DNA from: a virus
Taxonomy: Duplodnaviria; Heunggongvirae; Uroviricota; Caudoviricetes
IMG/VR virus record: IMGVR_UViG_2579778529_000005
DNA length: 7,660 nt
Direction: 5' to 3' (one strand)
Part shown: piece by piece, positions 1,364 through 7,621 of the stretch
Layout: every line of letters begins with the position of its first letter
Numbering within the stretch: the first letter of the stretch is position 1
The notes under the pieces: generated by a model
Seen by the model: the letters and a program-made list of their open reading frames with translations, nothing else
Database searches by the model: none
Told to the model about the DNA's origin: nothing
Program-made: the position numbers and the translations under genes

Positions 1364-1530
1364 TATCGCGTCCTCAACAATGAATTTTGTGATGCAGTGC
1401 CTGGTGCCTCCAGGTGACGTTAACCAGTTAACAATTAACGCCGGATACAGAGAATCCACCCATAACACTGTTTTTGGTTTTAACTGTTCCGCGTGCGCTT
1501 AGCCGCATTCACCGCATCACAAAATTCACT

Positions 1531-1575
1531 TTAAAAAGGGCGGCAGAGCAGTCACGGAGTAAAACTGATACCGCC
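1531..1575 (-). terminator. Rho-independent terminator forming the 3' end of DicF
   Basis: GC-rich stem GGCGG...CCGCC inside the 3' half of DicF, immediately followed by a T-run on the minus strand (plus-strand A-run 1533..1537). Confidence 0.7.
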
Positions 1576-1590
1576 AAACGTCACCAGAAA
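1538..1590 (-). ncRNA. dicF: DicF small regulatory RNA (53 nt; Hfq-dependent, targets ftsZ and other mRNAs)
   Basis: Reverse complement of 1538..1590 reads TTTCTGGTGACGTTTGGCGGTATCAGTTTTACTCCGTGACTGCTCTGCCGCCC, the DicF sequence as I remember it, followed by a U-run (plus 1531..1537 'ttaaaaa'). Confidence 0.85.
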
Positions 1591-1923
1591 ATTGATAACA
1601 GAGGGCGTTGCAGCGGGGTTGTCACTTAAGCGTATGGTCAACCTGACAACCCGGTGTCCTCAACGGGGAAGGAATAACCCCGCCATACTTACCGCCGCGC
1701 CATTTCGCGGGTTGCCACAACCGGAAGCGCACGGTCGACGAAAATTTAACGACAGGCTATCTATGAACCAGCTACCTCGCCGTGCGCTTTCGCGTTATGG
1801 TCTGACTTTTCAGGGAAATATCCTTTCAGTAAACTGTCAGTGCCGGATGTTCACCCGTGTCCGGCGCACGCACTCCACCTCACCCGTGGAGAACTCCTTA
1901 ATTACCAACCCTCAGGAGGGTGA

Positions 1924-2157
1924 ATGTTAAAATCAACTCTTATTGCTAAATGCCTTTATCAAAATCGCATGGTAAGCAGCATTTCAATAGGCGAGTCTGC
2001 AGTTAAAAGTATTTTCGAAGAGTACTTCCCCGGGCATGATTTTAATAAATGGAATACCAAATTACCGCCAGCAGTTTCAACGCGTATTCTGAAAGCAACT
2101 GAAAGAGCAAGTACAATTCGCGTTAACTATTTCATTAAAGATTTGTGGGATCTTTGA
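1924..2157 (+). CDS. Hypothetical 77-aa protein encoded opposite to the dicB operon; no recognisable domain
   Basis: ATG at 1924 preceded by a perfect AGGAGG (1914..1919) at 4-nt spacing. AT-rich coding sequence follows a GC-rich structured region. The 3' end overlaps the 3' end of the 135-aa gene by 23 bp. No homolog recognised. Confidence 0.5.
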   Translation: MLKSTLIAKCLYQNRMVSSISIGESAVKSIFEEYFPGHDFNKWNTKLPPAVSTRILKATERASTIRVNYFIKDLWDL

Positions 2158-2542
2158 TATCCACAGAGCCTAAAGTATGTGCATATGGATGTGCTATTGT
2201 GCGCCCTCGCAGATTTGCATCATTTTCTAAATTCACTGAACGAAACAGGGCATCAACAAGGCTCTGTACAATGCAAAGGCAATCGAAGACTGTCGCTGTT
2301 TCTGTTTTGATTGATGAAAGAACATGGCCATTCACGCAAACAGAAATTACCCGTTCATTAACATCGCTTTCCTGCTTTTGATTATCAGAACCATATAGCC
2401 CAGAAAAAGCATTGCGCACATTACGAACCATATTATCGATGGTTTCTTTTTTGGTGTATGCCGGGTCAATTTTCACCAGACTATCACCGAGAGTCGTTGC
2501 AGCAATTGTCTGGATTTCTTTTGGTAAATCTTTAAATTCCAT
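2135..2542 (-). CDS. Hypothetical 135-aa soluble protein, extra gene in the dicB operon between ydfC and dicF; function unknown
   Basis: ATG at 2542 with GAGG RBS, starting 22 bp downstream of the ydfC stop on the same strand. Intact 135-codon frame ending TAA at 2135..2137. I do not recognise the protein (MEFKDLPKEIQTIAATTLGDSLVKIDPAYTKKETIDNMVRNVRNAFSGLYGSDNQ...). Confidence 0.65.
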   Translation of the reverse strand: MEFKDLPKEIQTIAATTLGDSLVKIDPAYTKKETIDNMVRNVRNAFSGLYGSDNQKQESDVNERVISVCVNGHVLSSIKTETATVFDCLCIVQSLVDALFRSVNLENDANLRGRTIAHPYAHTLGSVDIKDPTNL

Positions 2543-2564
2543 TATTAGCCTCGTTGGTTAGCTA

Positions 2565-2783
2565 TTAACGTGGGTATGTAATCATTCTGGCAATGCTTAA
2601 TGCCGCTGCTTTTTCCAGATTGGTGATATCCTGCTCCAGAGCGGACAGATTTTCAGCCTGCTTAGCCCTGGCTTCATTAGCCCATTTCAGATCCTGCGCT
2701 GCATTAATTTTCTGGCGCATCCACTCATAAAGTTCATCATCGGTATAGTCTGGCGCGATTATGACGGGTTCTCGTTTCTGCAT
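2565..2783 (-). CDS. ydfC: YdfC, 72-aa Qin-prophage protein of unknown function
   Basis: MQKREPVIIAPDYTDDELYEWMRQKINAAQDLKWANEARAKQAENLSALEQDITNLEKAAALSIARMITYPR matches my recollection of K-12 YdfC. GAGGAA RBS 6 nt upstream of ATG at 2783. Confidence 0.85.
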   Translation of the reverse strand: MQKREPVIIAPDYTDDELYEWMRQKINAAQDLKWANEARAKQAENLSALEQDITNLEKAAALSIARMITYPR

Positions 2784-2812
2784 ACTGATTCCTCGCGGTG
2801 CTGTTTCGCTTA

Positions 2813-2941
2813 TCAGCCGTTAGATTTTGCCGAGCTGGAAAGCGCCTGTTTAAACTCACTGAAGCTGAGAGCTTCTTCGCCTTCGGCAAGGTCTTCGAAG
2901 TATTCTTCGTAAGCCTTTTCCATGATTGTGTCGAAATCCAT
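2813..2941 (-). CDS. ydfB: YdfB, 42-aa Qin-prophage small protein
   Basis: Not in the ORF track (too short). Hand translation of the minus strand from ATG 2941 gives MDFDTIMEKAYEEYFEDLAEGEEALSFSEFKQALSSSAKSNG then TGA (plus 2813..2815). The ydfA stop sits 1 nt before this ATG (TGATATG on the minus strand). Confidence 0.85.
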   Translation of the reverse strand: MDFDTIMEKAYEEYFEDLAEGEEALSFSEFKQALSSSAKSNG

Positions 2942-2942
2942 A

Positions 2943-3098
2943 TCACTCACCTGAGTTTCTTTCCAGCCAGCGACGGGCACCATTTTCGGTTTTAAACGTT
3001 TTGCTTTTGGTATACGTCATTGCGGTGAACGTGCCGTCCTGGTTTGGAAACACGCCGTACACCAGAGATTCGTTGTTGCCAAGATCGATAGTATCCAT
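2943..3098 (-). CDS. ydfA: YdfA, 51-aa Qin-prophage small protein (first gene of the dicB operon)
   Basis: Internal ATG at 3098 of track ORF 2943..3176 gives MDTIDLGNNESLVYGVFPNQDGTFTAMTYTKSKTFKTENGARRWLERNSGE. GAGG RBS 5 nt upstream. The longer track ORF starts with TTG at 3176 and would run through the operator region. Confidence 0.8.
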   Translation of the reverse strand: MDTIDLGNNESLVYGVFPNQDGTFTAMTYTKSKTFKTENGARRWLERNSGE

Positions 3099-3264
3099 GC
3101 TGACCTCATTTCCCCTTAACGCTGGGGTAGCGGAACTGTTTGCTGAGAACACCGTGCGGTGTGTTGATGCAAACAAGGTTAGCCATGACTAACATATCGG
3201 TCAAGTGATATTGTATGCTATAGCTAACATAATTGATGTGGTAAAAGATAACTCATTGATGATG
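3099..3264 (-). promoter_or_regulatory. PdicB promoter/operator region between dicA and ydfA, with DicA-operator-like palindrome GTTAGCCATGACTAAC (3178..3193)
   Basis: Intergenic on the operon strand. Contains GTTAG-N5-ACTAAC at 3178..3193 and a TTAGCTATAGCATA-like motif on the minus strand near 3215..3228, both recurring in the dicA-dicC intergenic region. Confidence 0.55.
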
Positions 3265-3672
3265 TTATCTTTTATTTGTCCGCTGACGGGCTTTTAGTAA
3301 TTCTTCAAAGAGTTTATTGAAGTTTTTTACTCGAGCTCGCATTTCGGCGAGCTGGGTATCCTGTTCTGATTCTGGCAGTGCATTAAACAGCTCAAGGAGC
3401 TCTAGTTCTTTGGGGGATAAGGCAACTGGCTTCTCAACAGGTGGTGTTGGTTGCTTGTCTTCATCGCCAAATAGAATCCATGTTGGTGAGCATTGCAATA
3501 CTTTGCTGAGGGCAAAAAGGTTCTTCCCTGTAGGTTCACTATCACCCCGTTCCCATTGTGATACAGACACATGGGAGATTTTCAGGGCTTTAGCAAGAGA
3601 CCTTTGGGTGTGTTTGAGGTTTTTCCGACGATACCTGATGCGTTCGCCGATAGTTAAATTTTTTGTTTCCAT
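3265..3672 (-). CDS. dicA: DicA, 135-aa XRE-family HTH repressor (cI/c2-like immunity repressor of the dicB operon)
   Basis: METKNLTIGERIRYRRKNLKHTQRSLAKALKISHVSVSQWERGDSEPTGKNLFALSKVLQCSPTWILFGDED... has an N-terminal HTH (QRSLAKALKISHVSVSQWERG) and matches K-12 DicA as I recall it. Divergent from dicC. Confidence 0.92.
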   Translation of the reverse strand: METKNLTIGERIRYRRKNLKHTQRSLAKALKISHVSVSQWERGDSEPTGKNLFALSKVLQCSPTWILFGDEDKQPTPPVEKPVALSPKELELLELFNALPESEQDTQLAEMRARVKNFNKLFEELLKARQRTNKR

Positions 3673-3755
3673 AGTTAGCTAATGCTAAATCGTATTGACT
3701 ATGTTTTTGTTAACATCTATCTTGTTAGTTATGACTAACAATAAAGGTGTTTTAA
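3673..3755. promoter_or_regulatory. Divergent dicA/dicC promoter-operator region: dicC promoter (-35 TTGACT 3695..3700, 17-bp spacer, -10 TATCTT 3718..3723) and operator palindrome TTGTTAGTtatgACTAACAA (3722..3741)
   Basis: Perfect 8-bp inverted arms with a 4-bp spacer overlapping the -10/+1 of the dicC promoter. Additional TTAGCTAATGCTAA motif at 3675..3688 just upstream of the dicA start. Confidence 0.6.
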
Positions 3756-3986
3756 ATGCTTAAAACTGACGCTCTTTTGTATTTCGGTTCAAAAACAAAA
3801 CTTGCACAAGCAGCAGGTATTCGTTTGGCTTCGCTTTATAGCTGGAAAGGGGATTTAGTTCCCGAAGGTCGCGCGATGCGTCTACAGGAGGCATCTGGCG
3901 GGGAGCTTCAGTATGATCCCAAAGTTTATGATGAATATCGTAAGACGAAGCGGGCGGGGCGGTTGAACAATGAAAATCACTCCTGA
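3756..3986 (+). CDS. dicC: DicC, 76-aa Cro-like regulator
   Basis: MLKTDALLYFGSKTKLAQAAGIRLASLYSWKGDLVPEGRAMRLQEASGGELQYDPKVYDEYRKTKRAGRLNNENHS matches K-12 DicC as I recall it. AAGGTG RBS. Divergent from dicA. Confidence 0.9.
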   Translation: MLKTDALLYFGSKTKLAQAAGIRLASLYSWKGDLVPEGRAMRLQEASGGELQYDPKVYDEYRKTKRAGRLNNENHS

Positions 3987-4491
3987 ACAGGCTCGTGAGG
4001 CTCTGGATGCCTGGATATGTCGACCAGGAATGACACAGGAGCAGGCGACGATATTAATCACTGAAGCATTCTGGGCTTTGAAAGAGCGCCCGAACATCGA
4101 TGTTCAGCGTGTCACATATGAAGGTGGCGCGATTGATCAGCGAGCGCTTGGCGTTAATCGAGTGAAGATATTTGAACGCTGGAAGGCTATCGACACCAGG
4201 GATAAGCGTGAAAAGTTCACGGCGCTAGTGCCTGCAATTATGGAGGCTATCCGGATTAATGATTTCAGGTTGTATCGTGAAATTACTGACGGAAAAAGCA
4301 TCACGTGCATGATCGCCGGGTTAAACAAAGAATATGGCGATGTGGTGGAGTCCGGACTGCTTTTTGCTGATCCTGCCGTAGTGGATCGTGAAACTGACGA
4401 ACTTATAGAAAAAGCAATTGCTTTCAAACTTGCGTATCGACAGCAATACCAACAAAAAGCTGGATGGAATTATGAGCCTTCTTTTTGCTGA
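3970..4491 (+). CDS. Hypothetical 173-aa phage protein at the position of a cII/YdaT-type early regulator (immediately after the cro-like gene); function not established
   Basis: ATG at 3970 overlaps the dicC 3' end by 17 nt, suggesting translational coupling. Frame is open for 173 codons. No recognisable motif; the assignment is positional only. Confidence 0.6.
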   Translation: MKITPEQAREALDAWICRPGMTQEQATILITEAFWALKERPNIDVQRVTYEGGAIDQRALGVNRVKIFERWKAIDTRDKREKFTALVPAIMEAIRINDFRLYREITDGKSITCMIAGLNKEYGDVVESGLLFADPAVVDRETDELIEKAIAFKLAYRQQYQQKAGWNYEPSFC

Positions 4492-5437
4492 ACGCCCACT
4501 GGTTATAAACACGCAGCTGGCAATGAAAATTGGCTTAAACGAAGCCATTGTTTTGCAACAACTGCACTACTGGTTGAGAGATACCAACTCCGGCATGGAA
4601 TGTGATGGTGTTCGCTGGATTTATAACACAACGGAACAATGGCTGGAACAGTTCCCATTCTGGTCAGAGTCAACGTTAAAGCGCGCGTTTGCAAGTCTGA
4701 AAACGCTGGGGCTTTTGCGTTGTGAAAAGCTCAATAAATCAAAGCGCGATATGACCAATTTCTACACGATCAACTATGGGAGCGAGCTTTTAGATGGTGG
4801 CAAATTGAGCGAATCCATCGGTTCAAAATGCGCCGCTCCATCAGGTCAAAATGACACGATGGAAGAGGTCAAAATGAAACGCTCCATTGGTTCAAAACGA
4901 CCCAATGTCATCGGGTCAAAATGGCCTGATGATCTTACAGAGAATACAACAGAGATTACTACAGAGAATAAAAACACTTTTCGTCCGGAAGCTTCGCAAC
5001 CGGACCCGCAGACGACTGAACAGGATTTTTTAACCCGGAACTCCGACGCGGTTGTGTTTAGTGCGAAAAAACGCCAGTGGGGTAGCAGGGAGGATTTGGC
5101 GTGTGCGCAGTGGATCTGGGGGCGGATCGTGGGTCTCTACGAACAGGCAGCCAGTGATGATGGCGAGATCATGCGACCAAAAGAGCCTAACTGGACTGCC
5201 TGGGCCAATGACGTGCGCACAATGCGGATGCTGGATGGCAGAAGCCACAGACAAATTTGCGAAATGTTTGGTCGGGTTCAGCGAGATCCATTCTGGGTAA
5301 AAAACATCATGAGCCCGTCAAAGCTCCGCGAAAAATGGGACGAACTGGTCATCCGCCTGGGACGTTCACCTGTACAGCGTTGTGTTAATCATATTTCTGA
5401 ACCGGATACAGAAATTCCGCCTGGTTTCAGAGGATAA
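4472..5437 (+). CDS. Phage replication initiator (lambda O-like), 321 aa from ATG 4472, with origin iterons inside the coding sequence
   Basis: N-terminal region MSLLFAERPLVINTQLAMKIGLNEAIVLQQLHYWL... looks like the DNA-binding domain of O-type initiators. Central SIGSK/GSK repeats are encoded by five 23-bp-phased iterons followed by an AT-rich tract, the classic lambdoid ori-in-O layout. The track start at 4418 is a TTG; ATG 4472 is preferred. Confidence 0.75.
   Translation: MSLLFAERPLVINTQLAMKIGLNEAIVLQQLHYWLRDTNSGMECDGVRWIYNTTEQWLEQFPFWSESTLKRAFASLKTLGLLRCEKLNKSKRDMTNFYTINYGSELLDGGKLSESIGSKCAAPSGQNDTMEEVKMKRSIGSKRPNVIGSKWPDDLTENTTEITTENKNTFRPEASQPDPQTTEQDFLTRNSDAVVFSAKKRQWGSREDLACAQWIWGRIVGLYEQAASDDGEIMRPKEPNWTAWANDVRTMRMLDGRSHRQICEMFGRVQRDPFWVKNIMSPSKLREKWDELVIRLGRSPVQRCVNHISEPDTEIPPGFRG
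4814..4976 (+). repeat. Putative replication origin: five about 17-bp iterons (consensus TCCATCGGTCAAAATG) phased every 23-24 bp (starts 4814, 4837, 4860, 4883, 4907), then an AT-rich tract with three ACAGAGA(A/T)TA repeats (4937..4970)
   Basis: Direct repeats read from the sequence. The architecture matches lambda ori (iterons plus AT-rich DNA-unwinding element within O). Confidence 0.65.
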
Positions 5438-5477
5438 GTGTTGATTTCAGGTCATGAGGTTATTTTAAGGGGGACTT

Positions 5478-5900
5478 GTGGCAAAAGTTTTTACACAAGA
5501 AGAGCGGGAAAAAATTAAATGGCAGGTGGTGGAACTCGTGCGCCAGAGCGGCCGTGAGACGTTACGGCAACTGGAAGCTAAAACAGGTGCGACTAGATAT
5601 CTGATGAGCGTTCTTGCCAGAGAGCTGGTAGCCAGTGGCGATGTATACAACTCCGGCTACGGGTTATTCCCCTCTGAACAGGCGCGTAAGGACTGGCAAA
5701 ACGCCCGCAAAAAACTCTCGAGGGCAAAGGTGAAGAAACCTGCTGTGGTTGATCCGGACCTTATCTGGTCATCACCTGACGGAGAAATACGTCGCTACGA
5801 CAGTCGCCTAAACATAATCTGTCGCGAGTGCCGGAAGAGCGAAGTTATGCAGCGCATACTGGCTTTCTATCAGGGTAATTTTCAGGACGTGGCGCAGTGA
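5478..5900 (+). CDS. Hypothetical 140-aa phage protein (GTG start), translationally coupled to the downstream methyltransferase-like ORF
   Basis: GTG at 5478 preceded by AAGGGGGA RBS at about 5-nt spacing. Basic protein with a CRECRK motif. Its stop overlaps the next start (GTGA at 5897..5900). Confidence 0.6.
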   Translation: MAKVFTQEEREKIKWQVVELVRQSGRETLRQLEAKTGATRYLMSVLARELVASGDVYNSGYGLFPSEQARKDWQNARKKLSRAKVKKPAVVDPDLIWSSPDGEIRRYDSRLNIICRECRKSEVMQRILAFYQGNFQDVAQ

Positions 5901-6253
5901 GTGCACCGGCAACCATTCTTGATATGTGCTGTGGCAGCCGCATGTTCTGGTTCGATAAGTCTGACGAACGGGCGATATTCAGCGATATCAGAAAAGAAGG
6001 ATACACATTACGCAATGGGAGACGCTTGATTATCAGCCCTGACATTATCGCAGATTTTCGTGCATTATCATTTGCAGACGCATCTTTTTCGATGGTTGTA
6101 TTAGACCCTCCGCATCTTGAGAGTGTTGGTGATAACGCCTGGATGGGAAAGAAATATGGACGGCTGAATAAAGATGCCTGGCGTGATGATTCGCGACAGA
6201 GATTTAAAGAAGCCTTTCGGGTGTTGAGGCCGCACGGCGTTCTGATTTTTTAA
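5897..6253 (+). CDS. SAM-dependent methyltransferase-like protein, 118 aa, possibly C-terminally truncated (candidate pseudogene)
   Basis: Motif I-like LDMCCGS near the N-terminus and motif IV-like VVLDPPH about 60 residues later (the D/N-PP-Y/F/H signature of amino-methyltransferases), then RVLRPHGVLIF. The frame stops at TAA 6251..6253 but stays open for about 30 more codons (WNETQIPVSQILALTDRKPVICQRTGKKR) before the next stop. IS3 is inserted about 150 bp downstream. Confidence 0.5.
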   Translation: MSAPATILDMCCGSRMFWFDKSDERAIFSDIRKEGYTLRNGRRLIISPDIIADFRALSFADASFSMVVLDPPHLESVGDNAWMGKKYGRLNKDAWRDDSRQRFKEAFRVLRPHGVLIF

Positions 6254-6402: not shown

Positions 6403-6441
6403 TGATCCTACCCACGTAATATGGACACAGGCCTAAGCGAG
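6403..6441. repeat. IS3 terminal inverted repeat (right end, IRR)
   Basis: Imperfect inverted match to the terminal 39 bp at 7622..7660 (TGATCYTACCCA...TGGACAC...CTAAG). Confidence 0.85.
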
Positions 6442-7299
6442 GTTCTGGTTTTCAAATTGTTCCGGACTGAGGCCGCCACACCAACTGTGCCGCCGCCACC
6501 GATTGTAATCACATTCGATATAATTAAACACCGTTGCCCGCATTATTTCCCGGCTGATAAAGTGTTCTCCATGGATACATTCCACTTTCAGCGAATGAAA
6601 GAAGCTTTCCACGCAGGCATTATCGTAGCAGCAACCTTTTGCGCTCATACTTCCACGCAGATTATGCCGCTTCAGTTGCGCCTGATAATCTGCTGAACAG
6701 TACTGGCCTCCACGGTCCGTGTGAACGATAACGTTCCGGGGCCTCTTACGCCGCCACAGCGCCATCTGCAGGGCATCGCAGGCCAGTTGCGCCGTCATGC
6801 GTGGCGACATTGACCAGCCAATAACGGCACGTGACCACAGGTCAATGACCACTGCCAGATACAGCCAGCCTTCATCTGTACGTAAGTACGTGATGTCTCC
6901 TGCCCACTTCTGGTTCGGGCCACTGGCGTAAAAATCCTGCTCCAACAGATTTTCTGACACAGGCAGGCCGTGTGCGCGGTAGCTGACCGGGCTGAACTTC
7001 CGGGAGGCCTTTGCCCTCAGTCCCTGACGGCGCAGGCTTGCCGCCACGGTTTTTACGTTAAAGGGGTAACCCTGAGCACGCAGTTCATCCGTCAGGCGTG
7101 GGGCACCGTAACGCTGTTTTGACCGGGTAAAAGCCGCGAGGACAACGCTGTCGCAGTGTTGGCGGAACTGCTGACGCGTGCTTATCCTTGTCCGCCGCTG
7201 ACACCACGTATACCAGCCGCTGCGGGCCACCCGGAGCACGCGGCACATTGCTTTGATGCTGAACTCAGCCTGATGTTTTTCAATAAAGACATACTTCAT
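6433..7299 (-). CDS. insF: IS3 transposase OrfB (InsF), DDE integrase-type catalytic domain, 288 aa
   Basis: [36 protein letters not shown]... matches IS3 InsF as I recall it. Normally expressed as an OrfAB fusion by -1 frameshifting. Confidence 0.95.
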
Positions 7300-7595
7300 T
7301 TCAGGCGCTTCGCGAAGTATGTCGCGGCCTTTTGGAGGATAGCCAGCTCTTCATCCCGTTCTGCCAGCTGGCGTTTGAGACGTGCAATCTCGGTAGACAT
7401 CTCCAGTTCACGTTCAGAAGACGTCTGCTGATTTTGCTGTTTACTGCGCCAGTTGTAGAGCTGTGATTCATACAGGCTGAGTTCACGGGCTGCGGCAGTA
7501 ACACCGATGCGTTCAGCAAGCTTCAGGGCTTCACTGCGAAATTCAGGCGAATGCTGTTTACGGGGTTTTTTACTGGTTGATACTGTTTTTGTCAT
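7296..7595 (-). CDS. insE: IS3 transposase OrfA (InsE), HTH DNA-binding protein, 99 aa
   Basis: [54 protein letters not shown]... The track ORF carries a 3-codon N-terminal extension (MTHMTKTV); the 99-aa form is the known product. Confidence 0.9.
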
Positions 7596-7621
7596 GTGAG
7601 TCACCTCTGACTGAGAGTTTA

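Follow-up and report, generated by a model that had tools for sequence, protein, structure and literature searches.

Convergent, 3′-overlapping genes between ydfC and dicF of dicB-type prophages look like a cognate partner pair

The literature on the dicBF operon of Escherichia coli gives the interval between ydfC and dicF as untranslated. In the 7,660-nucleotide stretch of prophage DNA analysed here, called the window, the same interval contains two small convergent genes, named A and B. The locus raises the question of what these genes are, whether they belong together, and what a pair arranged in this way could do for a prophage.

Organization of the ydfC-dicF interval

The window is a segment of a Qin-like (dicB-type) lambdoid prophage with Pfam matches to DicB, YdfD (DUF1482), YdfA (DUF1391), DicA (HTH_3), and DicC (P22_Cro), and an Rfam match to dicF (1538–1589, minus strand). 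Gene A (1924–2157, plus strand) encodes a protein of 77 residues that is identical to ECs1762 of E. coli O157:H7 Sakai, with two synonymous changes in the gene. Gene B (2135–2542, minus strand) encodes a two-module protein of 135 residues, the counterpart of Sakai ECs1763. The two genes, named ECs_1762 and ECs_1763 in the Sakai prophage Sp9, are labelled "hypothetical protein" in RefSeq. They converge, and their 3′ ends share 23 nucleotides (2135–2157), which encode FIKDLWDL* on the plus strand and KDPTNL* on the minus strand. The ribosome-binding site AGGAGG (1914–1919, plus strand) lies four nucleotides before A, and the site GAGG (2549–2552, minus strand) six nucleotides before the ATG of B, the start of which is 22 nucleotides from the stop codon of ydfC. 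The convergent arrangement with its overlap, the two ribosome-binding sites, and the gap between ydfC and B had been described in a sequence-only reading of the window, and all of them are confirmed. The AT-rich character of the cassette pointed out there is likewise evident, since its GC content is 39.3% compared with 54.2% towards dicF and 47.8% towards ydfC.

The sequence-only reading had proposed an alignment with K-12 Qin as a check on the variability of the cassette. The classical dicB operon of K-12 Qin has the same flanking genes, ydfA, ydfB, ydfC, dicF, dicB, and ydfD, and is 99.4% identical to the window across positions 127–1910 and 2545–4249. However, K-12 joins position 1910 straight to 2545, and the site of the A/B pair is an untranslated stretch in K-12. 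The missing segment of 634 bp (1911–2544) comprises exactly both genes, from 13 nucleotides before the ATG of A to two nucleotides before the ATG of B. K-12 retains the leader of A up to position −13 and a decayed ribosome-binding site of B, in which GAGG is replaced by AAAG. These remnants make the empty slot look like the result of a precise deletion, not like the ancestral state. The earlier description of the pair as "inserted" is therefore not established.

The match to K-12 Qin ends at position 4249, indicating that the prophage is a mosaic of a K-12-type immunity region and other replication genes. The region to the right (4249–5900) encodes a 339-residue protein without a Pfam match and a DUF977 protein. 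An IS3-family insertion sequence (6433–7604, minus strand) contains open reading frames of 102 codons (HTH_Tnp_1) and 288 codons (rve). It is preceded by a 118-codon open reading frame with a weak C-terminal methyltransferase match (5897–6253, Methyltransf_11, E 3.5e-4), which the insertion of the element may interrupt. Some dicB-type prophages carry RelE/ParE-RelB (PaaA2/ParE) toxin-antitoxin pairs between the repressor gene and ydfA (L160 3210–3688; L162 1694–2172). This site is another accessory slot in the same region of the operon.

Polymorphism of the slot among E. coli genomes

The occupancy of the slot was determined in 5426 complete E. coli genomes with a query coverage of at least 80%. 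The K-12-type empty junction is present in 2695 genomes and the A/B pair of the window in 646. The pair is thus not part of the core gene set of the dicB operon, in agreement with its earlier description as an accessory cassette. Three other convergent pairs occupy the slot: genes for proteins of 69 and 212 residues in 594 genomes (L160 type; L160 1790–2638), 91 and 106 residues in 198 genomes (L159 type; L159 1949–2522), and 63 and 201 residues in eight genomes (L161 type; L161 3001–3775). None of the three pairs has a Pfam match.

In every occupied type, the minus-strand gene has a constant N-terminal module beginning with MEFKDLP, whereas the C-terminal domain differs. The sequence upstream of A, including CTCAGGAGGGTGA and the AGGAGG ribosome-binding site, recurs in the L159 and L161 types, but their plus-strand genes are unrelated to A. 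In the L160 type, the upstream sequence and the ribosome-binding site of the plus-strand gene differ from those of A. The 201-residue protein retains the B-domain, the C-terminal domain of B, and has a further domain added to it; its convergent partner is a different gene of 63 codons. The small gene thus switches together with the C-terminal domain that opposes it, which indicates that the two are inherited and exchanged together, a signature of cognate partners. An overlap of exactly 23 nucleotides with the pattern TTA-N17-stop is found in three unrelated pairs (window 2135–2157; L159 2202–2224; L161 3584–3606).

Conservation of the pair in Enterobacterales

A convergent, 3′-overlapping unit of A and the B-domain is present in prophages of Serratia, Yersinia, Klebsiella, Dickeya, Citrobacter, and Edwardsiella. 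At the A loci of Dickeya, Serratia, and Yersinia, the minus-strand gene overlaps the 3′ end of A by 23–26 nucleotides. A convergent, overlapping open reading frame for a B-domain is present at all 88 evaluable A loci, a count that leaves out one further locus ending at a contig edge. Conversely, a scan of viral contigs, started from a typical B-domain because that of the window is atypical, found A at 64 of 69 B-domain loci, and the remaining five contain other convergent genes in its place. A is always accompanied by a B-domain, whereas the B-domain sometimes occurs without A. The invariable presence of B beside A is equally expected if A is an antidote of B.

The A family comprises three deeply diverged subfamilies, with proteins beginning MLKS, MKRSD, and MTRSD, which correspond to overlap classes of 23 or 26, 33, and 51 nucleotides, respectively. 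Among 63 distinct A/B pairs, the pairwise identities of A and B correlate with r = 0.67, a signal of co-diversification that is inflated by linkage alone. The retention of the convergent overlap across genera and the co-diversification of the two proteins bear out the earlier view that the pair acts as a two-gene unit. The module is nearly confined to prophages, as it was found in 12 phage records and in one of 72,556 plasmids.

Frameshifts occur in either gene. In the E. coli contigs L083 and L084 (4001–4247), A is frameshifted and B intact, and in three related metagenomic contigs (L087–L089, also designated L156–L158; 4166–4405), B has two frameshifts and A is intact. The frameshifts could be due to decay or sequencing errors.

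A and B are real genes, and their shared inheritance, read from sequence comparison, makes them look like cognate partners. Both were known as hypothetical open reading frames, and the association of A with RNA has been published. The literature searched contains no description of the obligate convergent pairing of A and the B-domain across Enterobacterales, or of the modular B and its position as the first early-left gene. Nor does it mention the polymorphism of the ydfC-dicF slot, where at least four unrelated pairs occur, or the shared promoter-like element.

Structure and RNA association of A

Homologues of A with 55–72% identity occur in Klebsiella, Dickeya, Xenorhabdus, Yersinia, Serratia, Morganella, and Salmonella, and are nearly always 77 residues long. 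The family defined by an exhaustive profile search contains 163 clusters, nearly all of which are stand-alone proteins of 74–80 residues. The AlphaFold model of A is a compact, all-alpha bundle of five helices (pLDDT 96.8, pTM 0.85), which matched no known fold in a comparison with the PDB. The only return of a fold search of BFVD was a homologue of A. In PHROGs, A is assigned to phrog_10348 and B to phrog_1363, both without assigned function. Searches of Pfam, NCBIfam, PADLOC, and PDB sequences with A and B were empty, and PADLOC-DB v2.0.0 contains no family matching A, B, or YdfC at E ≤ 1. The earlier impression that neither protein resembles any named protein thus extends to family, sequence, and fold searches.

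Native ECs1762 is significantly enriched in the UV-crosslinked RNA interactome of Sakai determined by TRAPP (Zammit et al. NAR 2025, PMC7618764). The cells had been grown in MEM-HEPES to an OD of 0.8 without a prophage inducer, and the enrichment therefore indicates that A is translated in the lysogenic state. The crosslinking further indicates that A contacts RNA, but in a PNK assay the RNA crosslinked to tagged ECs1762 was only "above background" (PMC7618764). The authors of that study detected no RNA-binding domain in ECs1762 (PMC7618764), and Pfam and PDB fold searches identified no RNA-binding domain or fold in A. Expression of tagged ECs1762 from a pBAD promoter with 0.2% arabinose allowed Sakai, which carries B, to reach an OD of 0.8 (PMC7618764), which argues against A being a strong toxin.

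With a GRAVY value of −0.13, A is a soluble helical bundle, unlike the small hydrophobic type I toxins. The net charge of E. coli A is +4; the A family has a median of 0 and a range of −6 to +4. Generic electrostatic binding of RNA is therefore not a trait of the family, and the same charge distribution rules out complementarity between a basic A and an acidic B as a family trait.

Modular structure of B

The model of B (pLDDT 74.8) has two modules connected by a disordered linker, and no convincing fold match was found for it. The N-terminal module (approximately residues 1–58; 2369–2542, minus strand) is a helical hairpin that starts with the MEFKDLP motif. The C-terminal domain (approximately residues 59–135; 2138–2368, minus strand) is formed of a beta-hairpin, two helices, and a conserved tail. 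Residues 1–54 to 1–72 of B match phrog_9419, phrog_2151, phrog_6937, and phrog_33007, and the N-terminal module is common to other phage proteins with different C-terminal domains. Outside E. coli, the conserved part of B is limited to the C-terminal approximately 75 residues, which form a stand-alone protein of 75–80 residues in most genera. B is thus a conserved domain of approximately 75 residues with an add-on N-terminal module. The secondary structure of the C-terminal domain is suggestive of a ribbon-helix-helix antitoxin, but Pfam and PDB searches gave no support for this assignment.

Comparison of the window with Sakai ECs1763 identified non-synonymous differences in 22 of the 135 codons of B, mostly in residues 8–31 (2449–2521), where helix 1 of the N-terminal module is swapped (KEIQTIAATTLGDSLVKIDPAYTK in the window, TPLQEMASNIVRSQLATLDLSTAE in Sakai). 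These residues are a mosaic patch, as the rest of the pair, including A and the C-terminal domain of B, is nearly identical.

The B-domain of Yersinia is fused to a YdfC-like N-terminal part (L008 5212–5787), and that of Citrobacter to a ClpX-type C4 zinc finger (PF06689; L163 3001–3420 and approximately 3930–4171), with a YdfC-like open reading frame close by. The fusions suggest a functional link between YdfC and B.

Regulatory elements around the pair

In prophages of Serratia (L007), Yersinia (L008), and Dickeya (L004), palindromic operator repeats are located between cI and cro and again between cI and B. The repeats on both sides of cI place B directly under the control of the repressor and make it the first early-left gene of these prophages.

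Almost all A loci outside E. coli have a conserved element upstream of A, GCCTG..TTcACC..CAGGC..GGTGGTATC(C/T)T, with a CA-rich leader after it. Its core is TTcACC-N16/17-TGGTATCYT, in which the extended −10-like TGGTATCYT ends 31–33 nucleotides before the ATG of A. The same element is found at the same distance before unrelated small genes, which encode a 66-residue zinc-ribbon protein, proteins of 147–148 residues, and an 80-residue protein; the zinc-ribbon gene is a pseudogene in Sakai. Copies of the element, before A or one of these other genes, are located in L005 (approximately 4930–5000), L003 (4927–4944), L008, L009, L071, and many others. The variety of genes that it precedes suggests that the element acts like a portable promoter and leader for genes opposing the early-left operon.

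The window contains no canonical copy of this core. The corresponding region upstream of A (1841–1913, plus strand) is a degenerate promoter-like and leader element, which retains the inverted repeat GCCGGA..TCCGGC, the TTCACC motif, and 28 of the 44 conserved columns, and has a 17-nucleotide insertion and a poor −10 sequence. A consensus scan of positions 1400–3000 counted no more promoter and terminator sites than occur in shuffled sequence; it revealed no convincing promoter from which E. coli could transcribe A, although Sakai makes the protein.

The conserved element has no match in Rfam, which speaks against a known small RNA, a possibility raised by the CA-rich leader, which recalls GcvB target sites and hence AgvB. 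An identity as an AgvB-type anti-sRNA was also rejected, because the AgvB types map to the PR′ moron site instead. The Yersinia prophage L008 contains a tRNA-like Rfam match (4497–4624, minus strand; 38.5 bits, with a 69-nucleotide insert) between a YfdP-like gene and A.

Comparison with known systems

The operons of pore-forming colicins contain a colicin gene, an immunity gene on the opposite strand, and a lysis gene. The A/B locus resembles them in that downstream of an inducible gene lies a small convergent gene, expressed without induction from a promoter of its own, and in that the downstream genes of the inducible operon, including a lysis gene (ydfD here), are read through antisense of the small gene. 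The correspondence is one of layout only, with the promoter degenerate in E. coli. Pfam, sequence, and fold searches identified no homology of A or B to colicin or immunity families. In contrast to colicin operons, the A/B locus has overlapping coding regions and encodes two tiny, soluble proteins, one of which, A, associates with RNA; its induction would be via the prophage repressor.

SieB/Esc of P22 and Nun of HK022 are prophage exclusion factors encoded in the early-left region. Nun binds RNA and acts on the early transcripts of an incoming phage, and Esc, as a self-antidote, spares the phage that carries it. A is similarly encoded beside the immunity region and, judging from the published data on ECs1762, is expressed from the prophage in lysogeny, as are superinfection exclusion factors. 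However, A and B have no homology to these proteins; Esc is an in-frame product of sieB and not of a convergent gene, and the arginine-rich motif of Nun contrasts with the folded all-alpha domain of A, the charge of which is not conserved.

The pair shares with type II toxin-antitoxin modules two small, strictly linked, cognate genes and the occurrence of orphans of one partner only. Nevertheless, the genes of the pair do not form a co-transcribed operon, as they converge with a 23-nucleotide overlap, B lies behind operators, and a separate promoter-like element precedes A. Neither A nor B could be assigned to a fold or family of known toxins or antitoxins, over-expressed A is tolerated, and plasmids almost never carry the module. 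The pair is not a type I module either, because A is soluble and its antisense partner is a conserved protein-coding gene.

Polymorphic toxins with exchangeable C-termini and their immunity proteins (CdiA-CT/CdiI, Rhs-CT/RhsI) provide a further parallel, since in E. coli the N-terminal module is constant, and the C-terminal domains are interchangeable, each with its own small downstream gene. In contrast to these toxins, B and its E. coli relatives are cytoplasmic phage early proteins of 106–212 residues without a delivery domain, the small gene is convergent, and the B-domain stands alone in other genera.

Possible functions of the pair

Our preferred reading, held tentatively and at less than an even chance, treats A and the C-terminal domain of B as cognate partners that are expressed reciprocally and form an accessory "effector/antidote switch" of the prophage. 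In the lysogen, A would act on RNA, with the early transcripts of lambdoid phages, incoming or leaky, as the likeliest target, and the outcome would be exclusion or an abortive effect. Upon induction or infection, strong leftward transcription antisense through A would silence it, and the B protein, made first, would bind and neutralise the A already present, so that a phage carrying B could develop. Counter-defence would be the role of B-domains that occur as orphans or are stacked with further C-terminal domains, and the ydfC-dicF slot of E. coli would hold interchangeable cognate pairs. The effector/antidote reading accounts for the orphan and stacked B-domains, the tolerance of over-expressed A, and the absence from plasmids. 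Against it stand the lack of similarity of either protein to defence, toxin, antitoxin, or RNA-binding families, the degeneration of the canonical A promoter in E. coli, the basic charge of E. coli A that is not family-wide, and the three contigs in which B is frameshifted while A is intact. Of the functions that the sequence-only reading had put forward, no defence or toxin model in PADLOC matches the pair, and defence or exclusion is no more than plausible. Against its suggestion of a toxin-antitoxin-like module stand the tolerated over-expression, the single plasmid among 72,556, and a convergent layout that is not that of a type II operon.

The polarity of the pair could also be the reverse, with the C-terminal domain of B as a small early-lytic effector, of a host take-over or kil-like type, and A as a constitutive immunity protein encoded on the opposite strand, which would shield the lysogen from leaky B or from the B of related superinfecting phages. 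An inducible effector opposed by a convergent gene with its own promoter fits the layout, and a constant N-terminal module with a variable C-terminal domain and a variable small gene just downstream is reminiscent of polymorphic toxin-CT/immunity cassettes. Uninduced cells contain A, its over-expression is tolerated, and an antidote would serve no purpose in the absence of its target, which would explain why B is never missing beside A. Nevertheless, most B proteins lack the N-terminal module, are only 75–80 residues long, and have no enzyme-like fold; the stacking of B-domains with further domains fits antidotes better than effectors, the crosslinking of A to RNA is left unexplained, and a benefit for the phage is not evident. 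We regard this polarity as rather unlikely. A classical addiction module, in which a growth-arresting toxin and a labile antitoxin stabilise the prophage, could be proposed from the strict linkage of two small genes with orphan copies of B and none of A, from the inverted repeat in the promoter-like region of A, and from the fusion of the Citrobacter B-domain to a ClpX-type zinc finger. It is very improbable, because the convergent genes are not co-transcribed, the lysogen makes A but represses B, over-expressed A does not stop growth, the toxin-antitoxin and PADLOC families contain no match, the pair is nearly absent from plasmids, and A is not a small hydrophobic toxin of type I.

Two further explanations dispense with an anti-phage role. 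The convergent transcription of A, the binding of A to early-left RNA, or both might damp the leaky expression of toxic downstream products (DicF, DicB, and YdfD in E. coli), a lock that B would lift after induction. The association of A with RNA, its position opposing an operon that encodes toxic products and has B as its first early gene, and the inverted repeats of its promoter-like element, which suggest regulation, are consistent with such a lock. However, most dicB operons of E. coli manage without the pair, as the 2695 empty slots show, unrelated proteins fill the same slot, and the same promoter element drives unrelated cargo elsewhere, which is typical of accessory morons and not of core regulators; the probability of the lock is accordingly low, on a par with that of the reversed polarity. 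Alternatively, A may have no functional link to B and be an independent moron packed against its 3′ end, with an overlap that persists because it is hard to undo. Other cargo genes follow the promoter element at similar positions, the length of the overlap varies (23, 26, 33, and 51 nucleotides), and linkage alone gives correlated divergence. Nevertheless, three deeply diverged subfamilies of A occur in many genera only ever beside a B-domain, and any change of the small gene in E. coli goes along with a change of its partner, so that an independent A is hardly credible.

A broader form of the preferred effector/antidote reading is doubtful. The A/B pair might be the founding example of an undescribed "reciprocal-switch" class of prophage systems, in which a lysogen-made, RNA-binding A of a new fold would block the early expression of phages, the first early-left product would be its dedicated antidote, and the two would be joined by a 3′ coding overlap. 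The E. coli slot and the portable promoter and leader would then be a hotspot of unrelated defence and counter-defence pairs.

Significance

A functional pair would give a role to two widespread "hypothetical" genes, one already serving as an EHEC marker. It would also supply a genetic partner and a regulatory context for ECs1762, an RNA-binding protein without a known domain. Since the pair sits upstream of dicF and dicB in the leftward unit, it could matter for the expression of toxic products in pathogenic strains. The slot and the shared promoter-like element of enterobacterial early-left operons would be a compact place in which to seek new exclusion, anti-defence, and host-control functions.
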